This document shows positions 24,855 to 46,442 of a DNA stretch of 64,000 nt, in pieces; position 1 is the first letter of the stretch; every line of letters begins with the position of its first letter. The stretch is from contig JANQKW010000331.1 in assembly GCA_028280905.1 (NCBI GenBank), forward strand, positions 2,000 through 65,999, in the 5' to 3' direction. Below the pieces are notes generated by a model. It did no database searches, was not told the DNA's origin, and saw nothing but the letters and a program-made list of their open reading frames with translations. The DNA comes from Porticoccaceae bacterium. Its GTDB lineage: Bacteria > Pseudomonadota > Gammaproteobacteria > Pseudomonadales > Porticoccaceae. A program made the position numbers and the translations under genes.

Positions 24855-24879
24855 CATTACCACTTTCCAAGAGGGACAT

Positions 24880-25659: not shown

Positions 25660-25668
25660 GCATGTAGC

Positions 25669-27279: not shown

Positions 27280-27291
27280 CGGAGACTGTTA

Positions 27292-28062
27292 ATGGCCGTC
27301 GAGCTTACACAAAATGGTGATTGCGCCGTTATTACGCTCAATCGCCCCGAGGCGCTAAATGCGTTGTCATTCCAAATCTTGCGCGACATAGGCGCGGCAA
27401 TTGATGAAGTTGCAACGCGGAAAGATGTGCGCGCGTTGCTGTTTACCGGTGCGGGAGACAAGGCTTTCTGTGCCGGTGCGGATATCAAGGAATTGCGAAA
27501 CCGTTCTTTGGTCGACCAAAAAAGGGGCGCGGAGTTGGGCCAGTCGGTGTTTGCAAAGCTGGACACTCTGCCGGTGGCCTCCGTTGCGCTGGTCAACGGC
27601 TATGCCTTTGGCGGCGGTCTGGAGCTGGCGCTGGCCTGCAGCTTCCGCCTGGCGTCGGTCAATGCGAAATTCGGTTTGCCGGAAGTCAAACTGGGTTTGA
27701 TCCCGGGTTACGGAGGCACCCAGCGCCTACCCCGCATAGTGGGTGAGTCCCGGGCGTTGGAAATGATTTTGACCGGCAAGACGGTTGACGCTGCAGCCGC
27801 CGAACAAATGGGCCTTGTCAATGCCGTGGTCGAAGGTGACATTGTAGCGGCCGGGCTTAAATTTGCCGCTGGTTTCACCGGCTATAGCCTGCCGGTACTG
27901 GAATTGGCCCGCCGCGCCGTGCAGCGCGCGGGCGACCTGTCGTTGGCTGAAGGCCTGCGGGTTGAAGCGGATTTGTCAACGCTCGCTTATTGTACCGCAG
28001 ACGCAGAAGAGGGCATGGCGGCCTTCCAGGAAAAAAGAAAAGCGGAATTCAAAGATGGATAA
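27292..28062 (+). CDS. Enoyl-CoA hydratase (crotonase; BadK-like by context)
   Basis: AVITLNRPEALNAL, FCAGADIKE, NGYAFGGGLELALAC. Confidence 0.9.
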   Translation: MAVELTQNGDCAVITLNRPEALNALSFQILRDIGAAIDEVATRKDVRALLFTGAGDKAFCAGADIKELRNRSLVDQKRGAELGQSVFAKLDTLPVASVALVNGYAFGGGLELALACSFRLASVNAKFGLPEVKLGLIPGYGGTQRLPRIVGESRALEMILTGKTVDAAAAEQMGLVNAVVEGDIVAAGLKFAAGFTGYSLPVLELARRAVQRAGDLSLAEGLRVEADLSTLAYCTADAEEGMAAFQEKRKAEFKDG

Positions 28063-28759
28063 ATCGCAGATTATTGTAACCGGCGCAAGCAAGGGTATCG
28101 GTGCGGCGATAGCCGCCGAGTTCGATAAGCGGGGTTATCCGGTGGTTTGCGTTTCCCGTTCAGGCGGCGCACCTGCTGGAACGGGATATTGCTGCGATAT
28201 GACCAATGAGGATTCGGTAAGGGAAACCTTTGGCAAGATTGCGGCCAATGGTCCGATTGCAGGGTTGGTCAATAACGCGGGGCTGCATATTCCGGGTTCG
28301 GCGGCCGGCTTGCAAACCTCCGACTACGATAAAGTCATGCGGCTTAATGCCACCGCGGTGATGGTTGCCGCCCGCGAGGTTTATCCGTACCTGAAGGAAA
28401 ACGGCGGCACTGTTGTCAACATTGGTTCGTTTTTCGACAAGCTCGGTGTTCCGGATAACCTGGCGTATTGTGCATCCAAGGCTGCGGTTGCGGCAATGAC
28501 ACGCTGTATGGCGGTCGAATGGGGCAAAGACGGTATCAGCGTTGTCAACGTGGCGCCCGGCTACATCGAAACGGATCTTAACCGTGACTTCCTCTCTCGC
28601 GAGAAAACCCAAGCATGGCTCAGAGGGCGAGTACCCGTGCAGCGGGCCGGTACAGCCGATGAAGTCGCCCGCCTGGTGGCGGCCATTTTCTGCGAGAAAA
28701 TCAACTTTTTAACCGGCGAAACCATCTATATGGATGGCGGGCAGGGGATGAATCATTAA
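28055..28759 (+). CDS. Short-chain dehydrogenase (BadH-like by context)
   Basis: Start moved to ATG 28055 (MDKSQIIVTGASKGIGAAIA), giving an 8-nt overlap ATGGATAA with the upstream gene. Has the YCASKAA catalytic motif. Confidence 0.85.
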   Translation: MDKSQIIVTGASKGIGAAIAAEFDKRGYPVVCVSRSGGAPAGTGYCCDMTNEDSVRETFGKIAANGPIAGLVNNAGLHIPGSAAGLQTSDYDKVMRLNATAVMVAAREVYPYLKENGGTVVNIGSFFDKLGVPDNLAYCASKAAVAAMTRCMAVEWGKDGISVVNVAPGYIETDLNRDFLSREKTQAWLRGRVPVQRAGTADEVARLVAAIFCEKINFLTGETIYMDGGQGMNH

Positions 28760-29925
28760 TGAACCTGTTTGAGCAGATTGACCGCGCGCGACATTGGAAC
28801 CATGAGCAACGCCTGATTCTTGATCAGGTCCGGCGCATGGCTGATGAGGTTATCGCACCCAATGCGGAAAGGACTGACGCAACGGGCGAGTTTCCCTGGC
28901 ACAATGTGAAGGCAATCAACGAGCTTGGCCTGAACACAGTCTTTATCCCTGAACAGTTCGGCGGTATGCCGATGTCCTACAAGCTTTACCTGGAAATTGT
29001 TTCAATTATCTCCGAGGCGTGTGCTTCTACCGGCATCATCTATGCCACAAACTTTCACGGCATGAAGCCGCTAATCGATTTTGGTTCCGATGAGCAGCGC
29101 GCACGCCTGCTACCGAAGATTGCCGAAGGCGGCCTCGGTGCACTGGCCATTACCGAACCCACCGCCGGTTCCGACGCTACCGGCATGAAGACCAAATTTA
29201 GGCCGGATGGCGAGGATATCATCGTCACGGGTTCCAAAGTTTTTATTACCAATGGCGATGTGGCCGATCGCATTCTGCTATTCGGCAAGTGGTCGGAAAT
29301 AGATGATGCAAAAAAAGCCATTTCGGTGCTTATCCTGGAAAAGGGCATGCCGGGATTTAATGTTATCGGTAAAGAAAAGAAAATGGGGCACAGTGGTTCT
29401 TCTACCTGCGCACTGTCGTTTGAGAATATCCGGGTACCCAGGGCAAACCTGATCGGGGAGCCCGGCGACGGACTCAAAATACTGCTCGCGTCTTTGAATA
29501 AATCGCGCCCTTCCGTAGCCGCGCACGCCCGTGGAATTGCCAGAGCCGCATTTAAAGACATGGTTGCCTATAGCAACGAACGTGTGCAATCGGGCCGAGC
29601 GATCTTGGATTTCCAGGGCAATCAATTTACCTTGGCTGATCTGGCCGGAGAATTGGCAATGGTGGAGCGCTGGATCGATTATGTCGCCGAACTGGTGGAT
29701 GGCGGCTCCAGCAATTTCGGTATGGAGGCATCACTTGCCAAGCTGCGCGCGTCTGACCTGGCGATGAAGATGGCCACCGAATGTGTGCAGTTTTATGGCG
29801 GCTATGGTTACTGTCGCGATTACCGCGCGGAACGATTAATGCGCGACGCAAAAATTACCCAAATCTGGGAGGGTACAAACCAGATTCATCGACAATTGAT
29901 TGGACGGAGTTTCAGAACTAAATGA
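28759..29925 (+). CDS. Acyl-CoA dehydrogenase (AliB-like by context)
   Basis: 388 aa with ...LAITEPTAGSD...QFYGGYGYCRDYRAERLMRDAKITQIWEGTNQI. TAATG overlap with the SDR gene. Confidence 0.9.
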   Translation: MNLFEQIDRARHWNHEQRLILDQVRRMADEVIAPNAERTDATGEFPWHNVKAINELGLNTVFIPEQFGGMPMSYKLYLEIVSIISEACASTGIIYATNFHGMKPLIDFGSDEQRARLLPKIAEGGLGALAITEPTAGSDATGMKTKFRPDGEDIIVTGSKVFITNGDVADRILLFGKWSEIDDAKKAISVLILEKGMPGFNVIGKEKKMGHSGSSTCALSFENIRVPRANLIGEPGDGLKILLASLNKSRPSVAAHARGIARAAFKDMVAYSNERVQSGRAILDFQGNQFTLADLAGELAMVERWIDYVAELVDGGSSNFGMEASLAKLRASDLAMKMATECVQFYGGYGYCRDYRAERLMRDAKITQIWEGTNQIHRQLIGRSFRTK

Positions 29926-31436
29926 CAACGGAAATACACAAGGTGGCGGTCTGCGGCGCCGGTGGAACCATGGGCGCAGGCATTGCTTTGGTTGCTGCGC
30001 GGGCGGGTTTTCAAACGGTTTGTTTCGATACGTCCGCCGAGGGTTTGGCGCGGTCTCGGGAGCAGGCTGAAAAATTCTTTGGCAAATCGGTTGAGCGCGG
30101 CAAAATGAGCGCGGAAGATCGCGACGCGGCGCTTGCAAGAATGGCGGATACCACCTCCCTGGACGACCTGGCTGATTGTGATTTGGTCATTGAAGCGGTT
30201 TTCGAAAACCTTGAGGTAAAACAAAAATTGTTTGCAGACCTCAACGGAATTTGTGCCGACAAAACCATTTTTGCCTCAAATACGTCGACCCTGTCCATCA
30301 CCGAGATAGCTTCCGGTTGCGGTCGTGAGGACAAGGTAGTGGGCATGCATTTTTGCCTGCCGGCCCAGTTGATGAAGTTGATCGAAATGTCGCGGGGCAT
30401 TAATACCTCTGACGATATTTTTCAGGCGGCATGGGCGTGGACCCAGGCCGCCGGACAATTGCCGGTAGAGACGCAGGACAAGCCGGGTTTTATCCTGAAT
30501 GCGCTATTGGTGCCGTATAACAATGATGCTATTCGAGCCATCGAAGCCGGTTTGGCGAGCCCTGAAGATATCGACTTGGCCATCAGATCCGGCCTGGGTT
30601 ATAAAATGGGACCCTGCACGCTTCTGGATTTAGTTGGGTACGACACCCAGGTGCGTCTGTGCGAGGCATTCTACCCTGTGACCCTTGATGTTCGCGCGTC
30701 AGCCCCACCGCTATTGCGGCGCATGGTGGCTGCCGGCCATCTAGGCAACAAGTCCGGTAAGGGTTTATTGGCGGGGCGCAGTGTCGATACCGAAAAAGCC
30801 GGCGAAGCGCCGGCGTATCAGCTGGTTCGTTCAGGTGAAAGTCGCTCCTTTCCCGAAGGCGACCCCTTCCTGAATAGTGGCGCGAACAGCGCCGATGTGG
30901 TGATTTATCTTGGTGGTGGTTATCAACCGGATCCGTCCAAGACGGCATTATTGATAGAACTGGATACCGAATGCCTGGGGGTGCACACGGGCGAAAAAGA
31001 AGGTAACGAAGGCTCCAACGCGGTTGGTTTCGCCCGCTATCGCAACGGCAATGACGCCCCTTCGAACCTTATCGAAATTGTGCGGCAGCCCAATACCTCG
31101 GCCGACGCCGTCGCCGCTGCGAAGGCATTATTTGAGGTTGCCGGTTTTGACGTGGCGGTTTGTGCCGACCAGCCGGGACGCATTGTCGACCGTTTAGTAC
31201 GGCCGAAGTACAACGCCGCACTGCGATTTCTTGACGAGGGTTTGGCGACGGCAGAAGCCATGGATATGACATGCCGATTGGGGCTTGGATATGCCGACGG
31301 TCCTATCGAGCGCGTCGCGCGCGGTGATTTGGCGCGGCACTACGACGTCAGCATGGCTATCTATGAGATGACCGGTCTGGCGGCCTATTCTCCCGCCAGG
31401 CGAGCGGTAGTTGCGAAAGCGCGCCAGGGCAGTTAA
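29922..31436 (+). CDS. 3-hydroxyacyl-CoA dehydrogenase, long form (NAD-binding plus duplicated C-terminal domain)
   Basis: KVAVCGAGGTMGAGIA Rossmann motif and ...FASNTSTLSITEIA...GMHFCLPAQLMKLIE. ATGA overlap with the upstream gene. Confidence 0.85.
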   Translation: MTTEIHKVAVCGAGGTMGAGIALVAARAGFQTVCFDTSAEGLARSREQAEKFFGKSVERGKMSAEDRDAALARMADTTSLDDLADCDLVIEAVFENLEVKQKLFADLNGICADKTIFASNTSTLSITEIASGCGREDKVVGMHFCLPAQLMKLIEMSRGINTSDDIFQAAWAWTQAAGQLPVETQDKPGFILNALLVPYNNDAIRAIEAGLASPEDIDLAIRSGLGYKMGPCTLLDLVGYDTQVRLCEAFYPVTLDVRASAPPLLRRMVAAGHLGNKSGKGLLAGRSVDTEKAGEAPAYQLVRSGESRSFPEGDPFLNSGANSADVVIYLGGGYQPDPSKTALLIELDTECLGVHTGEKEGNEGSNAVGFARYRNGNDAPSNLIEIVRQPNTSADAVAAAKALFEVAGFDVAVCADQPGRIVDRLVRPKYNAALRFLDEGLATAEAMDMTCRLGLGYADGPIERVARGDLARHYDVSMAIYEMTGLAAYSPARRAVVAKARQGS

Positions 31437-31445
31437 TGCAAGGCG

Positions 31446-32885
31446 ATGAGTGCGCTGTCAATTTCAACAGTGGTCGGTGTTGTCGGTGCAGGCACCATGG
31501 GTGCTGGGATCGCCCAGGTTGCAGCTGCCGCAGGACACCCGGTATTGCTGTTTGACGCTTGGGAGGGCGCTGCCGTTAACGGGCGGGAGCGCATCGGCAA
31601 GGGCCTGGCCAAGTTGGTTGAACGGGGGAAAATGTCACAGGCTGATGTGGAACAGCTGATGGGCCGCATCCTGGTCTGTGATGACTTGTCGGAACTGGCG
31701 GATGCCGGGCTTGTGGTGGAAGCTGTGGTGGAGGATCTTCAGGTCAAGCGGGATCTGTTTGCCCGGTTGGAGAAGATTACCGAAGACGATGCGATTCTCG
31801 CCACCAACACCTCGTCCATTTCGGTGACATTGATTGCCAGTCCTTTAGCGAGGCCGGAGCGGTTTGCCGGTATGCATTTTTTTAATCCCGCACCGGTGAT
31901 GAAACTGGTGGAAGTGGTGTCGGGTCTGGCGACTGCGGATGACGTTGCACAAACGCTCTACGCAACCGCCGGGGCCTGGGGAAAAGTGCCCGTTCATGCA
32001 AGCTCGACCCCCGGATTTATTGTAAACCGTGTCGCGCGACCGTTTTACGCAGAAGCACTGCGCCTTTTTGAAGAGCGGGTTGCAACGCCGGCAACTATCG
32101 ACGCCCTGATAACCCAGTGCGGCGGTTTTCGAATGGGGCCGTTCGCGCTGATGGATATGATAGGCCATGATGTGAATTACTCCGTCACCAAATCCGTTTT
32201 TGATGCCTATTACCAGGACCCGCGGTTTCGTCCATCAATCACGCAATTGGAGCTGGTCAATGCCGGCTGGTTAGGGCGTAAGTCCGGCCGGGGGTTTTTT
32301 GATTATTCTGAAGGTGCGGGCCGGCCCAGCGCGGCGACATTAGCTGTGCTTGAGAATGCCGGCTGCTTTGAGCAATCGCCGATCAGCGCGGCGCCGGTCA
32401 AACTCGACGGCGTGCTGTTTTCTCTTACCGACGGCCGACCGGCCCGGGAACGGGCAGAGGCGGAAGGCATGCCCACCGTTCTTTACGACTTGATGCTTGA
32501 TTCAGGCAAGGCCCCTCGAATCGGCTTCACTGCCTCTGACGAGGTCCCGGATAAAATAATTGATTGTTTTGTAGCGACGCTCCAGAACAATGGCAAGGCC
32601 GTCACGCGCCTTAAAGACTGGCCGGGTTTAGTGGTTATGCGCACGGTGGCCATGCTTGCCAACGAAGCCTTTGAAGCAGTAATGCATGGGGTATCCGATG
32701 AAGCGGGCATAGATGCGGCAATGAAATTTGGCGTCAATTACCCGCTGGGCCCGGTCGAATGGGCGAGGCAAATTGGCCTCGACCACGTACTAGGGGTGCT
32801 GGATGTTTTGTATAAGGCGACGGGCGATGCCCGCTATCGAGCGTCCTATATGTTGCGCACATTATGCGGCGTGACACAACGGTGA
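31446..32885 (+). CDS. 3-hydroxyacyl-CoA dehydrogenase, long form (PaaH-like size), tandem paralog
   Basis: VGVVGAGTMGAGIAQVAA, ...TNTSSISVT...GMHFFNPAPVMKLVEVV...PGFIVNRV. Confidence 0.9.
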   Translation: MSALSISTVVGVVGAGTMGAGIAQVAAAAGHPVLLFDAWEGAAVNGRERIGKGLAKLVERGKMSQADVEQLMGRILVCDDLSELADAGLVVEAVVEDLQVKRDLFARLEKITEDDAILATNTSSISVTLIASPLARPERFAGMHFFNPAPVMKLVEVVSGLATADDVAQTLYATAGAWGKVPVHASSTPGFIVNRVARPFYAEALRLFEERVATPATIDALITQCGGFRMGPFALMDMIGHDVNYSVTKSVFDAYYQDPRFRPSITQLELVNAGWLGRKSGRGFFDYSEGAGRPSAATLAVLENAGCFEQSPISAAPVKLDGVLFSLTDGRPARERAEAEGMPTVLYDLMLDSGKAPRIGFTASDEVPDKIIDCFVATLQNNGKAVTRLKDWPGLVVMRTVAMLANEAFEAVMHGVSDEAGIDAAMKFGVNYPLGPVEWARQIGLDHVLGVLDVLYKATGDARYRASYMLRTLCGVTQR

Positions 32886-32991
32886 GTTCAAGAGCCGCAT
32901 CCCCGGCGATATCCATGTCGAATGGCACCATGACATAAGCTCTGGATTCAATTAGACTCCCGGCATTTAACAAGAAAACAGGGGAGCTGGC

Positions 32992-34929
32992 ATGACGCTT
33001 CTTCGCCAGTTGATTATTGCCGTTGTGATACTTTTTGCCACGCTTTACGCGGTGAACACGGTAGTGAGCGTAGACAACAACCGCGGGTTGGTCGGCGAGC
33101 AGATGAAGGTACACGCTCAGGATACCGCCAACTCACTGGGCTTTTCGATGGCGCACGCCGCCGCGGGCAATGATCAGGCCACGCTGCAAGCCGTGCTGGA
33201 TGCTGTTTCGGACAGCGGCTATTTTAAGCGCATGGTTTTCCGAGACCAGTCCGGGGAAATCCTCGCGGAACGGCATTTCCCGCAAAAAACTAACGGTGCT
33301 CCGGATTGGTTCGTCGACGCCGTAGCGTTGCCCGCCTATCAGGTTAGCGCGCAAATTATTGCCGGCTCAGCGCAACTCGGCACCCTGACCGTGGAGAGTC
33401 ATCCGGCAAAGGCGTACCAGAAACTCTGGCAACTCACGGTTACCCAACTCACCTGGTTTGCCGTGGTCACTGCTTTGGTCTGTGTGTTTGCCGGCATGGC
33501 GTTGCGCTGGCTGGTGGGGCCGCTGCAGCGCCTGGAGGCACAGGCCAACGCGATAGTAGACGGCCGTTTTGAGTTGCAAACCGAGCTGCCCAGCGCTCGC
33601 GAGCTGAAAACAGCAGTGCAGGCGATGAATAGGATGTCGTCCAGGCTGAAGAGCCTGTTTAACGAACAGGTGGCCTTGATCGGGCGGCTGCGGGAGCAAG
33701 CGACGCACGACCCTGTTACCGGATTGTGCAACCGCGCGGAGTTTGATGCGCAACTGGCTAGCGTCGTTACGCCGGAAGGCGGTCCACGCGCCGGGATGTT
33801 GTTCATCATCAGGCTGGACGACTTGCAGGGGATCAACGACTACGCCGGTCGCACAGAAGGCAATGCCGTGCTTGCCAGCGTTGGCCAGGCCATAACCGAC
33901 GCCATTAAATCACCGGAGGGCGGCATTGTTGCACGCCGGCAGGGCGCCGAGATTGCCGTGTTCCTGCCAGATGTGGAGATCTCCGAAGCCGAACAACTGG
34001 CCGCCACTACCTTCGATGAGGTAAAACGGCTGACCTGGCAGCACAGTGATAGGTGGCCGCTGGTTTTTTCCATGGGTTTCACCCATAGCGAGGCGATGGA
34101 AACACCGCGGAATCTGTTGGGCGAAGCCGATGTCGCGCTAAAGAAGGCGCAGAGCGCCGGCGCCAACCAGTGGTGCAAGTTCGCGGATGTCACGCTGGAT
34201 GAGCCGCCCGTGATCAGCAAGCCCATCGCCGCGTGGCGCGACTACCTGGAGCCTTGCATAGCGGAGCGCGAGATAGAACTTCATCTGCAGCCGGTGGTCT
34301 CGGTGGTGGATAAAAAACCGTTGGCTACCGAGGCCTTTGTCAGATTTCATTCAGACAACGGCTTGATGCCCGCCGGCGTCGTGCTTCCCGCGGCTGAAAA
34401 ACTTGGACTGATGCCGGCGCTGGAGCAGCTGATCGTGGAGACCGCAATCCAGAAAATGCAAGACTCGGACAGCGATTTCATTCTCAATTTATCGTCGGCA
34501 TCCATTTGTTCCGAGCGGTTTATGGCCTGGCTAGATGACACCCTAAAAGCCACCGATAACGCCAGCCGCTTGTATTTTGAGGTTTCCGAGCGCAGCCTGC
34601 AAACCAGCGTCACTCAGATTGAGGCGCTGAATAATCTGCTGTTCAAGCAGGGTTCTAAACTGGGAATCGACCACTTTGGCCTGAACACCTCTTCCTTCTC
34701 CTATTTGAGCCGCTTGTCCCTGGCGTATCTCAAGGTGCACCGCAGTTTCGTCGCGGGCCTGCTGAATAACCCCGACAACCAGTTTTATATCCAGATGCTT
34801 GGCAATCTGGCGAAAAGCCTCGAAATACAGATTTGGGTGGAGGGCGTGGAAACCCAGGAGGATTTCGACGTGCTGGCCAGCCTGGGCGCGGATGCAGCCC
34901 AGGGTTACTTCCTCGGCGCCCCTGAGTAG
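32992..34929 (+). CDS. LapD-like inner-membrane signalling protein: periplasmic domain, HAMP, degenerate GGDEF and degenerate EAL
   Basis: 645 aa. Two TM segments flank a ~130-aa periplasmic domain. The GGDEF position reads RRQGAEIAV. The EAL block reads EAFVRF and the DDFG position reads DHFG, while EGVE and QGY are retained. Confidence 0.7.
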   Translation: MTLLRQLIIAVVILFATLYAVNTVVSVDNNRGLVGEQMKVHAQDTANSLGFSMAHAAAGNDQATLQAVLDAVSDSGYFKRMVFRDQSGEILAERHFPQKTNGAPDWFVDAVALPAYQVSAQIIAGSAQLGTLTVESHPAKAYQKLWQLTVTQLTWFAVVTALVCVFAGMALRWLVGPLQRLEAQANAIVDGRFELQTELPSARELKTAVQAMNRMSSRLKSLFNEQVALIGRLREQATHDPVTGLCNRAEFDAQLASVVTPEGGPRAGMLFIIRLDDLQGINDYAGRTEGNAVLASVGQAITDAIKSPEGGIVARRQGAEIAVFLPDVEISEAEQLAATTFDEVKRLTWQHSDRWPLVFSMGFTHSEAMETPRNLLGEADVALKKAQSAGANQWCKFADVTLDEPPVISKPIAAWRDYLEPCIAEREIELHLQPVVSVVDKKPLATEAFVRFHSDNGLMPAGVVLPAAEKLGLMPALEQLIVETAIQKMQDSDSDFILNLSSASICSERFMAWLDDTLKATDNASRLYFEVSERSLQTSVTQIEALNNLLFKQGSKLGIDHFGLNTSSFSYLSRLSLAYLKVHRSFVAGLLNNPDNQFYIQMLGNLAKSLEIQIWVEGVETQEDFDVLASLGADAAQGYFLGAPE

Positions 34930-34999
34930 TCCGGTAGCCGCTGGAAGGATTGCGGCTTGTGCGTATAATACGCCGCCTGGATAACTGTCGGATTGATAT

Positions 35000-36496
35000 A
35001 TGACCGTTCGAACTCGCATAGCGCCGTCGCCCACTGGCGACCCCCACCTGGGCACCGCCTATATCGCGCTGTTTAACCTGTGCTTCGCCCACGCCAAAGG
35101 CGGAGAATTCGTGTTGCGTATTGAGGATACCGACCAGCTGCGCAGCACCTATGAATCGGAGCAGAAGATTTTGCAGTCCCTGCAATGGTTGGGGCTGGAG
35201 TGGGACGAAGGCCCGGACGTCGGCGGTGACTATGGTCCGTACCGCCAGAGCGAGCGGATGCCTATCTACCGAACCCACGCCATGGAGCTTGTGGCGAAAG
35301 GGCATGCGTTTTACTGTTTCGCCACCCCGGAAGAGTTGGACGAAATGCGCCGCGAACAGATGGCCAGGGGTGAGACGCCCAAATACGACGGGCGCGGGCT
35401 GCTGCTGACTGACGAAGAGGTGCAAGCCAGGCTCGATGCCGGCGAGCCCTATGTGATACGGATGAAGGTGCCGGAGCGGGGGACCTGCACCTTCAGCGAT
35501 ATGCTGCGCGGGGAGGTGCAAATACCCTGGTCGCAAATCGATATGCAGGTGTTGTTAAAAGCCGACGGCATGCCCACCTATCACCTCGCCAATGTGGTTG
35601 ACGACCACCTGATGAAAATCAGCCATGTTATCCGCGGTGAAGAGTGGCTTAACTCGGCGCCCAAACACCAGCTGCTCTACCAGTACTTCGGTTGGGAGAT
35701 GCCCGAGCTATGCCATATGCCGTTGTTGAGAAACCCGGATAAAAGCAAGCTGAGCAAACGCAAGAACCCCACCAGCATCAACTACTACCGGGATATGGGT
35801 TACCTGCCGGAGGCGGTGCTTAACTACCTGGGCCGCATGGGTTGGTCGATGCCGAACGAGGAGGAAAAGTTCAGCTTCAGGGAGATGCTGGATAATTTCG
35901 ATATCTCCCACGTGCACCTCGGCGGCCCGGTATTTGACACGGAAAAGCTCGATTGGCTCAATGGCCGTTGGATCAGAGAGGAGCTGGATGAGCACGCCTT
36001 CGCCGATCGCGTTACCGACTGGGCGCTAAACCGCGACCACCTGCTGCAGATGATTCCGTTGGTGAAAGAGCGGGTGGAGAAGTTTACCGATCTGGCGCCC
36101 ATGTTGAGCTTCCTGTTGTCAGGCCTGCCGACGCTGGACAATTCCAGCTTTGAAAATAGCCGCGTAGATAACGAGACGGTTAGAAAAATCCTCCAGTTCA
36201 GCGCCTGGCGGCTGGATGAAACCGCCGCCTGGGAGCGGGATGTCTTGTACCGGGAACTCGACCAGATTGCCGGCGCCATGGAGATGAAGCTCAAGGACTT
36301 CCTGTTTCCGTTGTTTGTGGCGATTGCCGGGTCCAGTTCGGCGCCGCCGCTGTTCGATTCCATGGTGATACTCGGCCCGGATATGTCCAGGGCTCGGGTC
36401 AGGCATGCGCTCAATGCCGCCGGTGGCGCTTCCAAGAAACTGTTGAAGAAATGGGATAGGGAATACCAGTCGATCTGCGCATCCCGCGATGCTTGA
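35000..36496 (+). CDS. gltX: Glutamate--tRNA ligase
   Basis: [16 protein letters not shown] (HIGH-type) and KLSKRK (KMSKS-type) motifs; 498 aa. Confidence 0.95.
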
Positions 36497-36542
36497 CACC
36501 CAACGGGGCGATACTTAGAATGCGCAGCCTTCAATCGATTTA

Positions 36543-36618
36543 GGGGCTATAGCTCAGCTGGGAGAGCGCAACACTGGCAGTGTTGAGGTCAGCGGTTCGA
36601 TCCCGCTTAGCTCCACCA
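36543..36618 (+). tRNA. tRNA-Ala (anticodon GGC)
   Basis: Folded by hand. Acceptor GGGGCTA/TAGCTCC with the G3:U70 alanine identity pair. D arm GCTC-AGCTGGGA-GAGC. Anticodon arm CAACA-CTGGCAG-TGTTG. T arm AGCGG-TTCGATC-CCGCT. CCA is encoded. Confidence 0.95.
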
Positions 36619-36626
36619 AACACAAA

Positions 36627-36657
36627 CCCTCGCATGTAAGTGCGGGGGTTTTTGTTT
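36627..36657 (+). terminator. Rho-independent terminator after tRNA-Ala
   Basis: CCCTCGCA-tgtaag-TGCGGGGG followed by TTTTTGTTT. Confidence 0.8.
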
Positions 36658-36707
36658 GGGCGCCCTTTAGGGCGATCCCGAAGGGACGACGAATGAAATG
36701 AGGAGCA

Positions 36708-36731
36708 ATCCCGCTTAGCTCCACCAAACAC
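36708..36731 (+). repeat. 24-bp direct repeat of the tRNA-Ala 3' end (att-like scar or remnant of a second tRNA copy)
   Basis: ATCCCGCTTAGCTCCACCAAACAC at 36708..36731 is identical to 36600..36623 (T-arm 3' half, acceptor 3' strand, CCA and 5 nt of trailer). Confidence 0.85.
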
Positions 36732-36825
36732 TTCGCTTGTAGCGTTAGTAGGTACTAACGGGACAAAAACTCCCAAGAGTATTTCAAGCTACAAACACGA
36801 CGTTCCTTGCGTTGTGTAAGTGTAG

Positions 36826-36857
36826 AAAAGGGCTGCCTTTGGGTAGCCCTTTTCTTT
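36826..36857. terminator. Orphan bidirectional terminator-like hairpin
   Basis: AAAAGGGCT...AGCCCTTTT stem flanked by an A-run and a T-run. No intact gene lies on either side. Confidence 0.5.
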
Positions 36858-37001
36858 AACATTAGTAATTCCGGCTCGACCTGACAGCGGCGTAGGTTGT
36901 TTCTAGCAGTACTTTTCTATGTCACTTTCCTAATAGGGCCGCTGAAATATCTATGCACAGGGATACTAGTCTACCTAAATTAGGCTTGGCATAGCACAGC
37001 A

Positions 37002-37265
37002 TTGGGCAGCAAACGGTTAACTGAAGGGGATTTAAAAGAGTCTATCATCAAGGGAACCGGCCTGTGCGTGCGTTCGGTGGTGATGACAGCTACCGCCGTC
37101 ATCGTTGGTCTATTACCTACTCTCTATGGCGCTGGAACGGGTTCTGAGGTCATGAGCCGTATAGCGGCCCCCGCAGTTGGCGGAATGATAAGCGCTGTTC
37201 TATTGACGTTGGTTGTGCTTCCGGCCATATTCTTCGTTTGGAAGAAAAAAGGCACGCGAACATGA
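37002..37265 (+). pseudogene. 3'-terminal fragment of a CusA/CzcA-type heavy-metal RND efflux pump gene
   Basis: The 87-aa frame ...[62 protein letters not shown] matches the last ~85 aa of ~1040-aa CusA-family pumps ([22 protein letters not shown] in E. coli CusA, from memory). There is no upstream coding continuation and stops lie in frame. Confidence 0.75.
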
Positions 37266-37298
37266 AAGTAGTTAACAAATGGAACTAAAAAATACGGG

Positions 37299-37715
37299 TC
37301 AGTTATTCTCTTTCACATATAGAACAAGTGAATAATCCTCTAATTCATAGCCGTGTTCAAGCGCTAGTTCTGCCAGGCGATTTTCGATAGCCGCGTCGAA
37401 GAACTCGTATATGCGCCCGGTTTTCTGGCAAACTATATGGTTGTGGTGCGTGGTGTTGTTTAGCTCATACACTGTTGAATTAAGGTTAAATTTTTGACGC
37501 TTCAAAATCCCTGCTGTTTCTAGCGTAGCTAAAACTCTATGGACTGTCGATATGCCCATGTTTATATCGGATTTTCTAAATAATTTAAATACTTCTACGG
37601 CGCTCATATGATGTTGCCCGATATCTGCGCCCTCAAACAGTTCCAGTACTTTTATTCGGGCGGAAGTAATTTTAAGGCCTGCTTCTCGTAATTTTTGTTG
37701 AGCTGCTGTTGACAA
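37299..37715 (-). CDS. Fur-family metalloregulator (divergent metal-site residues)
   Basis: 138 aa: LKITSARIKVLELF..., winged helix, HHNHIVC block. TTG start with GAGG upstream. It lacks the C-terminal Cys pairs. Confidence 0.8.
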   Translation of the reverse strand: MSTAAQQKLREAGLKITSARIKVLELFEGADIGQHHMSAVEVFKLFRKSDINMGISTVHRVLATLETAGILKRQKFNLNSTVYELNNTTHHNHIVCQKTGRIYEFFDAAIENRLAELALEHGYELEDYSLVLYVKENN

Positions 37716-37839
37716 ATGTTAACCTCGAATTATCTGACTGATTGAAAAGGGCGTGGCGAATAACTTTGGTTGAGCGTGAAAACTGGCTTGAATATTCTCA
37801 AATGCATTTCTTATTTAAAATTAGATTGCATTGAAAAAT

Positions 37840-39279
37840 CTAGCGCTTTGCCGGGGAGTAATTCTTAAGCCGGTTAAAGCCAAAAGCGAAAGTGACGGCA
37901 GCAAAGAGTATAAGTGCAAGGGCATCTTTAAGAAGCCTAGAAAGTACAACTGATTGTTCTTCTGGTACATAAGTAAATCGAGGAACATTGACCATTTCAT
38001 CCCTTGTGAGATTCCTGTGTTCCATTACAGGTTTCATAAAATATTCACGCCAAATTTTATGATAGTCCTCGACTTGCGCCTTATAGTGCTCGAAATTCAG
38101 AGCACTATGATTGGCAAGTTCGCCAAGTGCAATCTGCGTCACGGCGGCCGGGCTGAGATACTTCAGGTTTCCCGCTAGCTCACGCTGTTGCCTTTTTTGG
38201 TTGTTAAATTTATCGAATACCGGGCCAGCGATTTCTTCTGCATGCAACTCAAGCGGTAGCGTCTTTAAGTAAAAATCGACTGTGCTCGCTTCCAACGCCG
38301 CCTCTTCGCTTTTACGCAGTAAATCCGCATAAAAGGCCCGTTCAAAACCGCTTTCCTTTGCCGCCTGTTCATCGGCACGGCGAACCGCTTCAACCAGCTC
38401 AATACGCGAAGGTAGCGGATATAAGGATTTCGCACTTATGTTAGAAACTGCCGGTGTGATCGGGACCAGAACAAGCCAACATGCCATCATTACAAGCGCG
38501 TTGGTAGCCGATTTCATTTCAAGCGCATTAACGGCGACCGCGAGTCCGAACCAGAAAGCGCCATAAAGAATGAGAATGGCAGCAAGAATCCCTATACGCC
38601 ATAACGAGTTGGCTTCGAAAATATCCGGATTGGCAACAAGCAGTCCGACCAAAGATATGCCCACGGCAAGGCCGATAATCAAAACGCCGCGCAGCGCAAT
38701 TTTGCCCATCACAAATTTGCCAACCGAAAGCGGCTGTGACAACAATAGAACTTGCGTACCATCCTCGCGCTCCGCTGACAATATGTTGTAACTGAGAGCA
38801 ATGATGAGTAACGGAAAAAGATAGACGAGAACAAAAGCCAGGTCGAACGCGCCAACAGCGAGGTTTTGCGGATTTTCGACTTCGTCCACATTCCGCTGCT
38901 TGTGCATCGGTTTCCATTGTACTTTCAAATAGGAAGGGGCTAGGTCGCTTTGCCCTACGGAAATTGCCGCTGTAGGCATAGGTGGTTTAATCGCAAACTC
39001 GTACCCCAACCAACGAGCATAAGGAGCGGCAAGGCGTGGGTCTTCCCTATAACTATAGGGCTCACCCGCGAGAATCCTATCGAGCTTAGCTACTTTTTTC
39101 TGAATGCCCTCGTCAGCTAGCGCTCTGGCTTCTAGCGTATTTTCTATAACGAAATTTTTCCAGGTTGTGCCGCTAGCTATACCGTAAGCCAGTAGTAGCA
39201 CATAAATCGGTATCGATATATAGGTTGCCCACTCGCGACTCAACAACCTCCATTCATTCACCATTATCTTCTTAATCAT
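37840..39279 (-). CDS. ABC-2-type transporter permease with a long C-terminal extension (recalls the DUF3526-containing family)
   Basis: 479 aa. An N-terminal TM, a large loop and a five-TM ABC-2 core, then a soluble segment and a terminal TM. Paralog of the upstream gene. Confidence 0.65.
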   Translation of the reverse strand: MIKKIMVNEWRLLSREWATYISIPIYVLLLAYGIASGTTWKNFVIENTLEARALADEGIQKKVAKLDRILAGEPYSYREDPRLAAPYARWLGYEFAIKPPMPTAAISVGQSDLAPSYLKVQWKPMHKQRNVDEVENPQNLAVGAFDLAFVLVYLFPLLIIALSYNILSAEREDGTQVLLLSQPLSVGKFVMGKIALRGVLIIGLAVGISLVGLLVANPDIFEANSLWRIGILAAILILYGAFWFGLAVAVNALEMKSATNALVMMACWLVLVPITPAVSNISAKSLYPLPSRIELVEAVRRADEQAAKESGFERAFYADLLRKSEEAALEASTVDFYLKTLPLELHAEEIAGPVFDKFNNQKRQQRELAGNLKYLSPAAVTQIALGELANHSALNFEHYKAQVEDYHKIWREYFMKPVMEHRNLTRDEMVNVPRFTYVPEEQSVVLSRLLKDALALILFAAVTFAFGFNRLKNYSPAKR

Positions 39280-39326
39280 GGTATTAAACCTTTATATAAG
39301 TGTTTCCAGAGAAGGAGTGTTGTTCT

Positions 39327-40778
39327 CTACTGGTTGACAGTTTTTACGCGGCGAGCCGAATAAGACAGCAAAGCCAAACTACCGACAAGCCAGATTATTA
39401 AGATGAAGATCGGCAGTTTATTGTGTCCCAGAACCGTGGCGAGAGGCGGTGGATCATAATCGAAAGGTGGGATCTGCTCCCACAATGACTTGTTGGCTTT
39501 ATAGCCCCAGGTGGACTCGTACTTGCTCATTCCAACGGCTTTTTTCTTGATATCCTCGTTAAGAATAGTCACCATTTGACGACGATACGCTTCCGCCGAT
39601 TTAGAAAAATCATTGGAATGATATACATCGGTGCCGGCTATTGCGTTCGACAATGTTTTAACCGCAATAAATGGAGAGAGTAAACCGAATATCTCATGAA
39701 GCTGGTTCTGTTTGACGAATGTTCTGCGCACGTGACCGTAGGTTCTATCAAACACCTCATAACCGACCTTTTCGTCCTCTTCTAAGGCTAGCCCGAGAAA
39801 GCTGAAAGGAAGGTCTTCGACTCGTTCAACGTTGTACTTTTCCAGCATCTTCTTCTTGAATGCCTTGTGGTTCGGATGGTTTGGAGAATGCGCATGTGGG
39901 CCCTCAGCCCGCCCTTTCTGTACTGCTTCGGCAAGTTCAAAAGAAGATGGCAGATCGTAAATAACTTTGCTGAGGTCGGAAGCGATGCGCGGAACGAGCA
40001 AAGCAGTGACAATCCAAAAGGCAAGTAGTGTAGTCAATGCTGCAGCTGACGATTTCGCGCGAATCGAAACTGAAAGTGCAATCGCGGTCAATGTAATAAA
40101 AAACACGACGTAAACGAGCGTAATGACCACCAGTTTCGTGGGAAATCCAATCATGAGGTGGGGATCATCGACCTTTATAAAAACAGCCGCTAACACCGCA
40201 CCAATCAGTACGCAAGGCAATACGACAGCACTCAGAGCGAGTCCGGCTCCTGCTGCTTTTCCCCAAATCAGTTTGCTTCGCGCTACCCCGATACTCATCA
40301 ACTGCCGCAAAGTACCATCTTCCCGCTCACCAGTGACCATGCCGAAACATAGAAGAAAAATTAGTAACGGAATTAGTAACTGCAACACCATAGCGCCTGA
40401 AAGGTCACCAAAGCGCTGTAAAGCTGTTCCGTCTGTCGCAGGCTTGAAGCTTGCCTGGTTCTCTCGGTGGGCCTCTAGATATTGTAATGTGCCAGTGTAG
40501 TCATTATAACCAGGGTCAAAAAATGCTAGTGGTGTCGCTGGTTTGAAAGCATAAACACCGTAGTGGCCAGCTGCGTGTGGTCCTTTCTTTCCCTGATTCA
40601 ACCATAATTCACGCTCTTCTGCGGTTGCATCCTGGCGCATCGCCTGGTCTTCCGTATAGCGGATCGCGCCAACGCCAATGGCCGAGATAAATAGAAAAAA
40701 CACGACGAATCCGGTCAAGAGAAAACGCCCATCTCGGACGGTTTCGGTAAACTCTTTACGCGCAATTATCCAAATCAT
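39327..40778 (-). CDS. ABC-2-type transporter permease with a long C-terminal extension (paralog)
   Basis: 483 aa with the same architecture. ...GEREDGTLRQL in this protein corresponds to AEREDGTQVLL in the paralog. Confidence 0.65.
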   Translation of the reverse strand: MIWIIARKEFTETVRDGRFLLTGFVVFFLFISAIGVGAIRYTEDQAMRQDATAEERELWLNQGKKGPHAAGHYGVYAFKPATPLAFFDPGYNDYTGTLQYLEAHRENQASFKPATDGTALQRFGDLSGAMVLQLLIPLLIFLLCFGMVTGEREDGTLRQLMSIGVARSKLIWGKAAGAGLALSAVVLPCVLIGAVLAAVFIKVDDPHLMIGFPTKLVVITLVYVVFFITLTAIALSVSIRAKSSAAALTTLLAFWIVTALLVPRIASDLSKVIYDLPSSFELAEAVQKGRAEGPHAHSPNHPNHKAFKKKMLEKYNVERVEDLPFSFLGLALEEDEKVGYEVFDRTYGHVRRTFVKQNQLHEIFGLLSPFIAVKTLSNAIAGTDVYHSNDFSKSAEAYRRQMVTILNEDIKKKAVGMSKYESTWGYKANKSLWEQIPPFDYDPPPLATVLGHNKLPIFILIIWLVGSLALLSYSARRVKTVNQ

Positions 40779-40789
40779 TGAATATCCCT

Positions 40790-41584
40790 CTAATCGTGCA
40801 TGTGTTTCAAATAGAGGGCTTCAAGGTCAGCGTGGCCGATATCTTCAGTATGAAGATCGTCAACTAAGTTGCCATGTTTCATAATTCCGACTCTGGTGCC
40901 CGTTTCCTTTGCGCGAAACAGGTCATGTGTAGCCATCAGGATGGACACCCCATTTGCGCTCATGCTCAACAATAGCTCGGAAAATTCATTTGATGCTTTT
41001 GGATCGAGCCCGGATGTCGGCTCATCCAGAAGGAGGACTTTGGCTTTCTTGGCTATAGCGATGGCTATCCCTACTTTTTGTCTCATGCCCTTGGAATAAC
41101 CGCCGACTCGCTTATTCGATGCGTCATTTTGTAGACCTGCATGATCAAGAAAGCCGTAGAGTTCTTCATCTGTGTAATGATTATGTCCGGCAAGAGTACT
41201 GAAGTAGCGCAAATTCTCTATGCCGGTCAAGTTTCTATAGAGCATTACAATTTCAGGAATATAAGCGAGTGATTTTTTTGTTTCAATCGGGTGCTTCTGA
41301 ACATCCATACCGTCAATAAAAGCATGTCCGGAATTGGGTTTAATGAAGTCAAGAAAAAGGTTGATAGTAGTGCTCTTTCCTGCCCCATTTGCACCCAATA
41401 AGCAATAGATTTCACCGGGCGCTATATTCAAATTTAAGCTGTTAAGGGCCGGCTGACCATTATATTTTTTGCATAGTTGAACCGCTCTAATCAACGATTG
41501 GTTAGCCTTATCAGTCTGTGATTTACTCACACAAACTCCTGTCTCGGAGTCAGCAGATTTAACAGGTGTTTGCAGTGTTGACAT
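40790..41584 (-). CDS. ABC transporter ATP-binding protein
   Basis: Walker A GANGAGKST, signature YSKGMRQKV, Walker B LLLDEPTSGLD. The start is either ATG 41584 or GTG 41596. Confidence 0.9.
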   Translation of the reverse strand: MSTLQTPVKSADSETGVCVSKSQTDKANQSLIRAVQLCKKYNGQPALNSLNLNIAPGEIYCLLGANGAGKSTTINLFLDFIKPNSGHAFIDGMDVQKHPIETKKSLAYIPEIVMLYRNLTGIENLRYFSTLAGHNHYTDEELYGFLDHAGLQNDASNKRVGGYSKGMRQKVGIAIAIAKKAKVLLLDEPTSGLDPKASNEFSELLLSMSANGVSILMATHDLFRAKETGTRVGIMKHGNLVDDLHTEDIGHADLEALYLKHMHD

Positions 41585-41919
41585 ACTAGAACCCACTTAT
41601 ATTAGTAGTTTGTTATTGTAATAGCGGAGATGTTTCAGCTTTGCCCAAGCAGAGCTTAATGTTGCTCACTCTGCTGTGCGTATAAAAACCAAAGGTATGG
41701 AATTATTAATTCCTGCGCAAATGAAATATTGGAATGGAGGTTCGTAGTTATGGAATGCTAGCTGTCGTTAGGGGAACGTGTATATTGAGTCGGTCATTCC
41801 CTGGCCATATGCTGTCTACGTTCCATTTCTCGTCGAGTAAACCACGATGGAATAGCAGGATAAATAGCCGCTGCCGTTTCAACCGAGCTTAAGTAGGATT
41901 TTATCGAGCAATGCCCGAA

Positions 41920-43050
41920 TTAGTTAGCAACAGCCTTGTCAGATTCGGTATAACGGGTAATCCGAAAAGCATCGATTGGTGTTGTAGATTCTCCTTTTAC
42001 AATTAGTTCTCCAATCACTTCGCCTGTTGATGGCCCAAGCTGAAACCCATGACCACTCATGCCAAATGCGTGAACTAAATTTGGCGTGGTGTCACTAAAC
42101 CCCAATACAGGCATCCGATCTGGCATATCGGCCTCAAGCCCCGACCACGAACGAATAATATTAACGCCTTTGAGGGCGGGAACAAGGTCGACTAATTTCT
42201 CGAAAGCCGCAATACTGGTTTCAGTTACCGGACGTGAACGCTCGGCTTCGAGGTCCCCCCAACCAGGTCCTCCGCCAAATACCACATTGCCTCTATCCAC
42301 TTGGCGAAAATAGGGTACACCTCCGACGATGGCGACAGAACGATTCATTAATGGGGAAATAGGTTCTGTGACTACCAAGTTAGGTGAGCGCAGTCTGACA
42401 GGAGGGTGTTCGTCGAACCATTCACATATACTTTTTGCCCAAGCACCAGTGCAGTTGACAAGGAAGCGGGACTTCAAAGTAAATGTATCTGTCGAAACTT
42501 CAAATAGCTCTCCCGTCTGTTGCGCAAATTTTGCAGCAGTGAACTCGTGGATCTCTGCTCCCATACTTTTCGCTTTCCTAGCGAGGGCGGGCGTTACAAG
42601 GCGAGGATTTGCCAATCCACATTCTGCTGAGAAAGATGCACCGACCACCTTGTCACTTAACCAAGGGAAATTGTCTCTAACGTATTTGAGACCAAATATC
42701 TCCAGGTTAAGTCCGTAATCACGGACTTTCTCTGCATGATCCTCGAGCACGGCCATATCTTCTTCGTTCTTGGCCAGGCGAATGTGGCCAACAGCTCGAA
42801 ACCCAATATCCTCCCCCAGCATTTCGTTCATACTATGCCAGAGGGGTACAGCGCGCCTGGAAAGGGGTATCTCTGGGAGCGATCGGCCTTGCTGTCTTAC
42901 TCCTCCGGCGTTATTGCAGCTGGCTTGAGCGCCGCACATGCCTTTTTCGATAACCGCTACCGATAGTCCCGATCGACGCAGTGCGATAGCTGCTGAGCAG
43001 CCAATGATTCCGCCGCCCAAAATAGCGACGTCAACTTTCTTTTCTGTCAT
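41920..43050 (-). CDS. FAD-dependent oxidoreductase, DAO family (D-amino-acid dehydrogenase / sarcosine-oxidase-beta / HcnC / OoxB-like)
   Basis: Start moved to the internal ATG (MTEKKVDVAILGGGIIGCSAAIALRRSG, a dinucleotide fold). The 74-aa N-terminal extension in the ORF track overlaps the upstream gene. Confidence 0.85.
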   Translation of the reverse strand: MTEKKVDVAILGGGIIGCSAAIALRRSGLSVAVIEKGMCGAQASCNNAGGVRQQGRSLPEIPLSRRAVPLWHSMNEMLGEDIGFRAVGHIRLAKNEEDMAVLEDHAEKVRDYGLNLEIFGLKYVRDNFPWLSDKVVGASFSAECGLANPRLVTPALARKAKSMGAEIHEFTAAKFAQQTGELFEVSTDTFTLKSRFLVNCTGAWAKSICEWFDEHPPVRLRSPNLVVTEPISPLMNRSVAIVGGVPYFRQVDRGNVVFGGGPGWGDLEAERSRPVTETSIAAFEKLVDLVPALKGVNIIRSWSGLEADMPDRMPVLGFSDTTPNLVHAFGMSGHGFQLGPSTGEVIGELIVKGESTTPIDAFRITRYTESDKAVAN

Positions 43051-43886
43051 TTGTTTGCTTCCGTCTTTATAGGGTGAGTCTGAACCTTGTTTAACGATTG
43101 CGTGTCGATCTGACGCCACTTTTCTTCTTCGGGAAGGTCTACTGGTATGTCTCGAAAGGACTTTTTGCCAGTAAACGTTGCAGAGATTATATTGACATCT
43201 AAGTTGATTTCGGATAATACCACCGCCGCGATATGAAGTGCGGCCAATAACAATAGCAGGTAGTAACACCAAATATGCATAGTAACAACAGGATTGCGAA
43301 CAGCGAGCATTTTCGTATATGTTACAGGGTTGACTGTCGCTAACATTTCAGCTCGAAGTGATGTCATAAATCCAGGCACATTGGGCTTTACTTCCGAAGG
43401 GTCTACTTCCGGGGCAGCAATATACTGTGATATTGCACCTCCAAACGGTGGCATATAGATGTCAGTTCCGGTAAGTAATAGCCCGCTTGACCCTTGAATA
43501 ATAAAAAGTACAATGAATAAAGAAACTGCGAGACGCCCCAAAGGGTTATGCCCCAGGAAAGAGGGCTTATGTCGTCCGAACATTCCACGAATATACTCTA
43601 AGAAAGACCTGGCATAGCCCTGCCTGAACGGTAATATATGTCGCCATTGAGCGTAATAACTGCCTGTCCATCCCCAGACTATTCGCCACAAAAGATTAGC
43701 TATAAATATATAGCCAACTAATGTATGAATTTTTTTTAGAAGAACATAACCGTCGAGCGATAATCCTAATTCCATTCCATAATGAACGACGCTTCCACTG
43801 AATATTAGGAGCAGAAAGCTGATGAAGTTTATCCAATGGAATACACGTACAGAGCGACCCCACACGTGAAATTCATTCAGGCTCAT
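43047..43886 (-). CDS. Membrane b-type cytochrome (cytochrome b561 / Ni-Fe hydrogenase b-subunit-like family)
   Basis: 279 aa. RSVRVFHWINFISFLLLIFSG..., four TM helices with conserved His (HW, KIHTLVGY, LGHNPLG, ALHIAAV). Its stop overlaps the next start (ATGA). Confidence 0.7.
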   Translation of the reverse strand: MSLNEFHVWGRSVRVFHWINFISFLLLIFSGSVVHYGMELGLSLDGYVLLKKIHTLVGYIFIANLLWRIVWGWTGSYYAQWRHILPFRQGYARSFLEYIRGMFGRHKPSFLGHNPLGRLAVSLFIVLFIIQGSSGLLLTGTDIYMPPFGGAISQYIAAPEVDPSEVKPNVPGFMTSLRAEMLATVNPVTYTKMLAVRNPVVTMHIWCYYLLLLLAALHIAAVVLSEINLDVNIISATFTGKKSFRDIPVDLPEEEKWRQIDTQSLNKVQTHPIKTEANK

Positions 43887-44221
43887 ACGCTTTCTCGCTA
43901 AAAAATGCCTGGTGCCGCATCTCTTAGATTTATAGACGACGGGTAAATATCGGCATCAAATTTATTGGTCAGACTACCCGTTAAATGTACGACGGTAGAT
44001 ACTTCTAATACCAATTACTTTTTGTTATGCACTATCTTCAAGATTGAATTTGGAGAGGGCTGGTAAAAGTGCCAGAATCCGACTGATGCTAACAAAGATT
44101 CTTTTAGTCAGCAGGTTAAACTAATTCAACATCTACACAAGATCAATTTTGAGCCCGGTATAGAGTTATTTGACGGGCAAACAACAAACCAGATTAAACC
44201 GATTATCGGGGGATAATAGAT

Positions 44222-46351: not shown

Positions 46352-46370
46352 TTGCTCCAATAAATATTTG

Positions 46371-46407
46371 TCCCCGCTTTTCTGTTGTAAAGCGGGGATG
46401 TTTTTTT
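46371..46407 (+). terminator. Rho-independent terminator after the receptor gene
   Basis: TCCCCGCTTT-tctgttgt-AAAGCGGGGA followed by TGTTTTTTT. Confidence 0.85.
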
Positions 46408-46442
46408 GGAAATGCCTAAATAGACATTGATGAGGAAGATCT

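Follow-up and report, generated by a model that had tools for sequence, protein, structure and literature searches.

We analysed a 64,000-nucleotide stretch of DNA (the window; C338:2000–65999) from a 420-contig, 3.74-Mb metagenome-assembled genome (MAG) of a marine bacterium with 54.4% GC, in which the 3' end of a tRNA-Ala(GGC) gene is duplicated just before a step down in GC content. We put at roughly two thirds the probability that a decayed RtT-type unit supplies the second copy as its tail and that the GC step beside it is the edge of an acquired region. RtT is a known yet unexplained structured repeat. Its units are structured non-coding repeats of ~130–180 nt that stand behind tRNA genes and always finish with a duplicate of the 19-nt end of that tRNA. 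The window unit would lack its 5' half; the tail and hairpins 2 and 3 would be kept, and hairpin 4 would be present in ruined form. Integration of the adjoining DNA would not have produced the tail repeat. The low-GC region, at least 32 kb long, would start right after the relic, having replaced or displaced an ancestral gltA-sdh-suc neighbourhood, and would have lost its integrase-proximal end, with a 3' stub of cusA left at the edge. The observed facts behind this reading are the repeat with its offset, the RtT family of the genome, synteny that has been lost, the deviating composition and a patchy cargo. Both the repeat and the border are of known kinds, and the island border is an ordinary one.

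The tRNA tail repeat

An exact match search confirmed that the 24-mer ATCCCGCTTAGCTCCACCAAACAC occurs twice in the window, at 36600–36623 and 36708–36731, with a spacer of 84 nt, as a preliminary description of this DNA had reported. No other copy was found in the window at up to three mismatches, with zero matches expected from window shuffles. The repeat combines the tRNA's final 19 nt, running from the T-loop to the CCA end, with five trailer bases. Copy 1 (+ strand) is the tRNA's own end with the trailer AACAC. Copy 2 (+ strand), which would terminate the RtT-like unit, begins at tRNA offset −19, and this is also the offset in the units on contigs C34, C374, C301, C259, C335 and C165 of the same genome and in the rttR units of E. 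coli. The search for a third copy that the preliminary description had proposed turned up these two alone: the 19-mer core was found nowhere else in the whole 3.74-Mb assembly (≤1 mismatch), and a relaxed search allowing up to five mismatches gave no third copy on C338, C181, C117 or C153. Nor did the interval 36619–37020, searched against the genome for repeats and miniature inverted-repeat transposable elements, return anything beyond the 24-mer.

The same description had interpreted the repeat as the footprint of an island integration, and this part of its proposal was not supported. The copies stand 84 nt apart, and both lie to the left of the low-GC DNA that direct repeats serving as island flanks would enclose. 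The two tail copies are not an attL/attR pair, because they do not flank the low-GC DNA, the genome has no third copy and the contig has no integrase. An attL would, moreover, put element DNA after copy 1. Since a native terminator stands there, the repeat is probably not an att footprint.

The preliminary description had also considered a truncated second tRNA. Copy 2 is extremely unlikely to be what remains of a tandem second tRNA-Ala gene, although tandem tRNA-Ala(GGC) genes do occur in some genomes of the order (G035; L067, with Ala-Glu-Ala). Identity between the copies breaks off abruptly where the 24-mer begins, with no likeness to a tRNA body upstream of it, and all eight family loci have a single tRNA-Ala. 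A downstream tail copy of any kind was seen at only two of 75 gltX-linked tRNA-Ala(GGC) loci sampled from Porticoccaceae to Acinetobacter, namely the window locus and that of genome G008. The truncated tRNA was therefore rejected.

RtT-type units in this genome, E. coli and relatives

The layout of tRNA gene, terminator, structured spacer and copy of the tRNA's 19-nt end is repeated behind at least nine other tRNA genes of this genome. Two such units were found while the genome's other low-GC borders were being scanned, one behind tRNA-Ser(GCT) on C34 (spacer 150 nt, repeat 39 nt) and one behind tRNA-Arg(ACG) on C374 (spacer 149 nt, repeat 14 nt). In both, the copy begins at offset −19. The two spacers are mutually homologous, and a search with them revealed a family at more than 10 loci. 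Further units lie behind tRNA-Asp, tRNA-Lys (two in tandem), tRNA-Tyr (two), tRNA-Val and a Ser-type tail (two), and another stands at the distal end of a tRNA-Phe island. The C149 unit is inverted behind tRNA-Leu(GAG), and C113 has tandem units with no ARAGORN tRNA nearby. All fully resolved tail copies begin at offset −19. The units of this genome occupy C34:5532–5811, C374:11136–11395, C301:18677–18919, C204:2006–2435, C259:417–864, C335:6017–6281, C165:34911–35160, C113:9752–10067, C149:841–932 and C269:4962–5125.

We built a covariance model from 11 sequences, comprising eight Porticoccaceae and three E. coli units, with the window copy excluded. These units have in common GATGAGAAC, GGTTCGAC, ACCCGAAGGGCGA and GAGTAATCC, and their consensus fold has compensatory changes in 14 of 17 pairs. 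In the outer helix, bases before TTCGA pair with CC(NN) after AAT, so the unit resembles a T-arm with a four-hairpin cassette in its loop. In an intact unit, the tail would pair with the upstream strand to give a helix like that of a T-arm and acceptor, with the cassette placed in the T-loop. We tested for the RtT architecture by its parts: a tail paired with a 5' strand, GATGAGAAC and GGTTCGAC, a set of four hairpins (CCCGAAGGG being one), and GAGTAAT ahead of the tail. The model found 13 good copies in this genome and RtT-type copies in 25 of the 41 genomes sampled from the family and order, often in tandem.

The Rfam model of RtT (RF00391, gathering score 45 bits) matched six of these loci: the gathering score was passed by C335 (62.2 bits), C165 (59.4 bits) and C259 (46.2 bits), and C269, C34 and C374 matched below it. 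True members of RF00391 are thus found well outside the enterobacteria, and behind many different tRNAs. The annotated E. coli K-12 tyrT-tyrV-rttR locus shares this design: tRNA-Tyr ends in the 19-mer AATCCTTCCCCCACCACCA, which is repeated every 178 nt through rttR and appears one more time in the tyrT-tyrV spacer. The 178-bp repeats distal to E. coli tyrT-tyrV go back to Egan & Landy (1978) and Bosl & Kersten (1991), according to the passages of PMC8144298 and PMC3318445 that cite them.

The four-hairpin cassette was also found alone in relatives, as a dispersed repeat of ~75 nt without tRNA-like ends, and may be a small mobile or REP-like (repetitive extragenic palindromic) element. In G015, G033 and G037, many matches were confined to model positions 41–118 (G033:C1:371416–371490 and G037:C2:140824–140895 among them). 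At C259:719–864, part of a Thr-Tyr-Gly-Thr tRNA cluster, a sequence resembling tRNA-Tyr lies upstream of the genuine tRNA-Tyr; its T-loop holds the cassette, and a further insert is present at its anticodon loop.

The probable relic behind tRNA-Ala

There is about a two-in-three chance that 36660–36731 (+ strand) is a truncated RtT relic from which the 5' half and hairpin 1 are gone, an assignment drawn from the covariance model, the hairpins and the tail copy in a weak-scoring spacer. The hairpins CGCCC-TTTA-GGGCG (36661–36674) and TCCC-GAA-GGGA (36676–36686) are followed by a degenerate fourth hairpin and the tail copy, whose end lies 108 nt past the tRNA's own tail on the same + strand. Hairpins 2 and 3 of the family are thus present in register, hairpin 4 is degenerate, and hairpin 1 and the 5' half with GATGAGAAC/GGTTCGAC are absent. 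Our covariance model, blind to the window copy, aligned to 36572–36726 with 17.7 bits (E 6e-4). This was the top match in the 15 kb from 30000 to 45000, and the alignment runs through the two hairpins and then the tail. The same model gave 6.8–8.9 bits on the plain tRNA-Ala loci of ten relatives, so about 10 bits of the window score come from the spacer. A hidden Markov model (HMM) of the hairpins only had its top match in the whole window at 36664–36685, in the right register inside the spacer. Folding of the relic stretch gave −46.9 kcal/mol (z −4.4).

Several results weigh against this assignment. Genome-wide, the E-value of the window locus with our covariance model is 0.15, and part of the 17.7 bits is contributed by the T-arm of the tRNA itself and by the tail copy. 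The hairpin-only HMM match has an E-value of 5.6 over the window and is persuasive solely through its place, which had been predicted beforehand. RF00391 gives no match at the window locus at E ≤ 10, and the 45-bit gathering score is not reached. The continuity of 36570–36686 depends on the MAG assembly alone. The covariance model does not recognise the tRNA-Ala duplication of G008, and the origin of RtT units as such may lie in site-specific recombination.

The G008 duplication is at the orthologous tRNA-Ala(GGC) locus (G008:C1:967099–967371), where the tRNA's final 14 nt and the terminator (~58 nt, one mismatch) are repeated ~135 nt downstream. By eye, its spacer contains the RtT-like pieces GTGAGCCGAACC and GAGTTCGAT, an AGGA-loop hairpin and GCACAAGGATGTGC.

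Set beside RtT/rttR (RF00391), the window unit likewise follows a tRNA gene directly and on its strand, ends in the exact 19-nt tRNA end including CCA at the −19 offset of E. coli, and has the CCCGAAGGG hairpin and the GC hairpin that precedes it; full-length members in its own genome attain the Rfam gathering score. It differs in being ~70 nt long rather than ~130–178 nt, in being a single copy, and in having neither the GATGAGAAC/GGTTCGAC 5' half nor hairpin 1. It also comes after an intrinsic terminator, scores below every family threshold, and follows tRNA-Ala(GGC) in a Porticoccaceae host, whereas rttR follows tRNA-Tyr in Enterobacteriaceae. We take the relic to be non-functional, because its 5' half is lost and it is positioned behind the tRNA's own terminator. 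For annotation, this means that a short-spaced duplicate of a tRNA 3' end is not automatically an att scar; here it bears an RtT-type signature.

The native side of the border

The tRNA-Ala(GGC) gene (36543–36618, + strand) is the sole ARAGORN tRNA call in the window and scores 63.5 bits with the Rfam tRNA model. A candidate sigma-70-like promoter (36493–36521, + strand; TTGACA, 17 nt, TAGAAT) precedes it, called from a consensus match at 11 of 12 positions. The gene is followed by its intrinsic terminator with a T-tract (36624–36662, + strand; 12 pairs at 36624–36651 in a terminator scan), which separates it from the relic. This terminator stretch is homologous to the tRNA-Ala trailers of family members, with 96% identity through 36662 in G003 and further homologues in G008, G023, G022 and others. 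The last native gene left of the border is gltX (35000–36496, + strand), which encodes a glutamyl-tRNA synthetase of 498 aa and is 58–78% identical to the genes upstream of tRNA-Ala(GGC) in eight family members; Pfam tRNA-synt_1c is listed for it on the matching Logan contig. Its identity to records from Porticoccus and related MAGs is 73–78%, and on this basis the organism belongs to Porticoccaceae. All eight family genomes conserve the order GGDEF/EAL gene, gltX, tRNA-Ala(GGC), with one tRNA-Ala at each locus, and gltX, tRNA-Ala and its terminator are syntenic in all of them.

The preliminary description had left open which side of the border is native. Judged by homology, it is the left side, terminator included, because single alignments to the same family members cover both the tRNA-Ala promoter region and the terminator (to 36662). 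The practical use of the border is that it identifies the native side of the contig.

Two organisms of the metagenome could in principle have been joined at a shared 76-nt tRNA-Ala, which would make the GC step an artefact and the repeat a real feature of the right-hand organism. Such an assembly chimera is very unlikely. The genome is a 420-contig MAG whose bin holds two gcvP genes, and contigs from an independent Logan assembly of SRR20820735, identical to the window at 27687–36569 and 36687–47715, leave 36570–36686 unbridged, one ending inside the tRNA (36569) and the other 21 nt before copy 2 (36687). Many MAG contigs of relatives also stop at this tRNA. Nevertheless, native-type sequence continues past the tRNA to 36662, at least seven other contigs of the bin have the same transition from high-GC DNA through a tRNA to low-GC DNA (in two cases with an integrase where one would be expected), and the contamination estimate of the MAG is 2.35%. 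To carry a second gcv cluster, together with sdaA and glyA, as an accessory feature is normal in Pseudomonas, and we counted this against a chimera too. The spacer junction had 0 exact matches among JGI metagenome contigs.

The Logan break at 36686/36687 is not accounted for by the 24-nt repeat at k=31 and may reflect population heterogeneity at the border. At L051, L058, L073, L074, L049 and L055, the contigs end at or just after the gltX-linked tRNA-Ala; with relatives' contigs ending there, the locus is a frequent assembly break point in the family.

Composition and content of the low-GC region

The abrupt change in GC noted in the preliminary description was borne out. GC falls from ~56% to ~46% directly past copy 2, and in a 1-kb profile it ranges over 0.53–0.60 at 24001–37000 versus 0.38–0.53 at 37001–64000. 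The low-GC side has a GC of 0.46–0.47 against a genome mean of 0.544, and on the first tetranucleotide axis its first 20 kb lie 2.3–2.6 standard deviations below the average 10-kb chunk of the genome.

The first low-GC DNA is an AT-rich non-coding stretch (36732–37001) that has no repeat elsewhere in the genome; a 14-nt inverted repeat in it (36824–36855) corresponds to the orphan hairpin described earlier. Next comes the 3' fragment of a CusA/CzcA-type resistance-nodulation-division pump gene (37002–37265, + strand), again as described: ~75 final codons in an 87-aa open reading frame (ORF), matching PF00873 positions 948–1019 of 1021. The fragment is 73–78% identical to plasmid cusA of Salinimonas and Alteromonas. 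A plasmid search with 36732–37300 returned weak cusA/silA matches and nothing more. We read this stub as marking where the acquired region was eroded or truncated on its left. The first intact low-GC gene encodes a Fur-family regulator (37299–37715, − strand; PF01475, E 1e-31).

As delimited by Pfam scans, the GC profile and the contig end, the low-GC accessory region covers 36732–64000 of the window and continues to the end of the contig, at least 32.5 kb in all. Besides the Fur regulator, it contains a DUF3526 ABC-2 exporter, a TonB receptor, an aldehyde dehydrogenase, an opine-dehydrogenase-like set with an Opp-type importer, and a second gcvP-gcvH-gcvT-sdaA-glyA cluster. The contig runs on with gcvH, gcvT, sdaA and a cut glyA. 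The right border lies beyond the contig, in agreement with the earlier statement that it could not be seen. The reported lack of an integrase was likewise upheld: no tyrosine-recombinase domain (PF00589) was found on the contig, all six matches in the genome being on other contigs, and Pfam scans of the 20 main ORFs at 37002–59644 found no integrase.

Lost synteny and origin of the cargo

The comparison of gene order downstream of gltX-tRNA-Ala that the preliminary description had called for favours a border. In six of eight relatives, gltA (− strand), sdhCDAB, sucAB, lpd and sucCD follow at 0.2–7 kb after gltX-tRNA-Ala, and none of the eight has the window's downstream genes there: none of 22 downstream window proteins was found within 17 kb after tRNA-Ala in these family genomes. 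In the present genome the gltA-sdh-suc block is on contig C181, preceded by gcvT-gcvP, and C117 and C181 overlap by 29 nt. Of the earlier proposal of an integration hotspot or island border, then, the border stands, as one between native and non-syntenic low-GC DNA, and the repeat as the footprint of that integration is unsupported.

The genome has two gcvP genes. The window copy is 57–69% identical to those of relatives, with a top match of 78% and Kineobactrum sediminis as the best named homologue (76%). The other copy (C117/C181, 60% GC) is 74–77% identical to Porticoccus-type relatives; being closer to the relatives, it is the orthologue, and the copy in the window region is, by these identities, a xenologue. 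The low-GC gcvP-gcvH-gcvT-sdaA-glyA cluster spans 60745–64000 of the window and C338:65742–69244, and the high-GC gcvT-gcvP pair adjoins gltA (C117/C181).

The nearest named homologues of the DUF3526 permease by the border are in Sphingomonadales; the closest homologue (68%, GCA_028284345) has another neighbourhood and gave no clue to a donor. The opine-dehydrogenase-like subunit is present in 10 of 201 genomes of the order. The low-GC DNA was probably acquired, and horizontal transfer would be the route of its arrival. From the border it also follows that the opine-type catabolic genes and the second glycine-cleavage cluster belong to the accessory gene set.

Low-GC DNA and islands behind other tRNA genes

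Low-GC DNA follows at least eight tRNA or transfer-messenger RNA (tmRNA) genes of the genome, the window's tRNA-Ala among them. It does so with an RtT unit at the Ser, Lys, Phe, Ala and Arg(ACG) genes, and without one at tmRNA, Arg(CCT) and Met. Integrases occupy the classical position at tRNA-Phe, tmRNA and tRNA-Leu, in canonical islands at C269:4900–18953, C52:8000–19323 and C278:9864–11797, respectively. The tRNA-Phe island (13.7 kb, 42–46% GC) lies between the tRNA and a degenerate core. Past this distal core come the native terminator, the RtT unit, the tail and then further low-GC DNA. From this arrangement, the RtT module is a component of the host's tRNA trailer, with islands inserting on either side of the module. 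Among RtT tails with enough flank, five of nine are directly followed by low-GC DNA. The junction between tail and following DNA varies by locus, at about −10, −5, 0, +5, +20 or more, and the C34 low-GC block, which ends inside its contig, has no repeat at its far end.

These borders bear on the classical interpretation, in which the two copies in the window are attL and attR of an element reduced to 84 nt, a remnant like a cis-mobilizable element (CIME), and the low-GC island sits in tandem in the distal copy with its far att site beyond the contig. We consider such an att scar unlikely. It would explain why the repeat is exactly the T-loop-to-CCA segment typical of tRNA-targeting integrases and why the low-GC DNA starts 1 nt past copy 2; the genome has real integrase islands at tRNA genes, and the five RtT-type tails that precede low-GC DNA might be secondary attB sites. 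However, what follows copy 1 is the native terminator rather than element DNA, the genome has no third copy, the contig has no integrase, and the same short-spaced design occurs without an island at C259 (in a tRNA operon), C335, C301 and E. coli tyrT. The shifting tail junction and the C34 block without a far repeat also speak against it.

As in tRNA-linked islands with P4-type integrases, foreign-looking, low-GC and patchy cargo starts just 3' of a tRNA, and relatives keep a different, conserved neighbour at the same locus. The window region differs from them in having no integrase and no distal repeat, in tail copies that do not flank it, and in a left end eroded to the cusA stub with a right end off the contig. 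CIMEs and tandem accretion of integrative elements are known from the ICESt3 type of Streptococcus thermophilus. There too, a very short segment between two att-like cores adjoins a larger element; the window segment, in contrast, opens with a host terminator and carries RtT-family hairpins, and short modules of its type occur at many different tRNAs, also without a neighbouring island.

Two related ideas would give the RtT-type relic a part in the border itself: the tail copies could be secondary attB sites for tRNA-targeting islands, or the RtT units could be protein-less mobile elements homing to the tRNA T-loop. We entertain them because five of nine tails precede low-GC DNA and the cassette-only form (positions 41–118) is dispersed in relatives, and we regard either as decidedly improbable. 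If the tails were spare landing sites, acquired DNA would pile up behind an RtT unit and not in the tRNA gene; if the units were mobile and the 19-nt tail a copy of the target, the window relic would be the entry point of the low-GC region. Use of a tail as attB is only a possibility, because the position of the junction varies and C34 has no far repeat. Homing spacers of type V-K or I-F3 CRISPR-transposons and guide RNAs of TnpB or IS110 were rejected as candidates for a scaffold with a tRNA-matching tail, as there is no transposase or cas gene in 32 kb and the scaffold is RtT.

Two observations concern C374. Its low-GC block behind tRNA-Arg (C374:1–11000, reverse strand) seems to contain zinc-limitation genes, judged from N-terminal sequences alone, with FolE2-like, dihydroorotase-like and HisI-like proteins, a TonB receptor and a short Fur/Zur-like ORF; the window block likewise opens with a Fur-family regulator and a TonB receptor. 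An 80-nt ARAGORN call of tRNA-Gly(CCC) at C374:11195–11274, antisense to the RtT unit, has no Rfam tRNA match and is probably false. The hairpin-1 loop of that unit reads TTCCCGA on the antisense strand.

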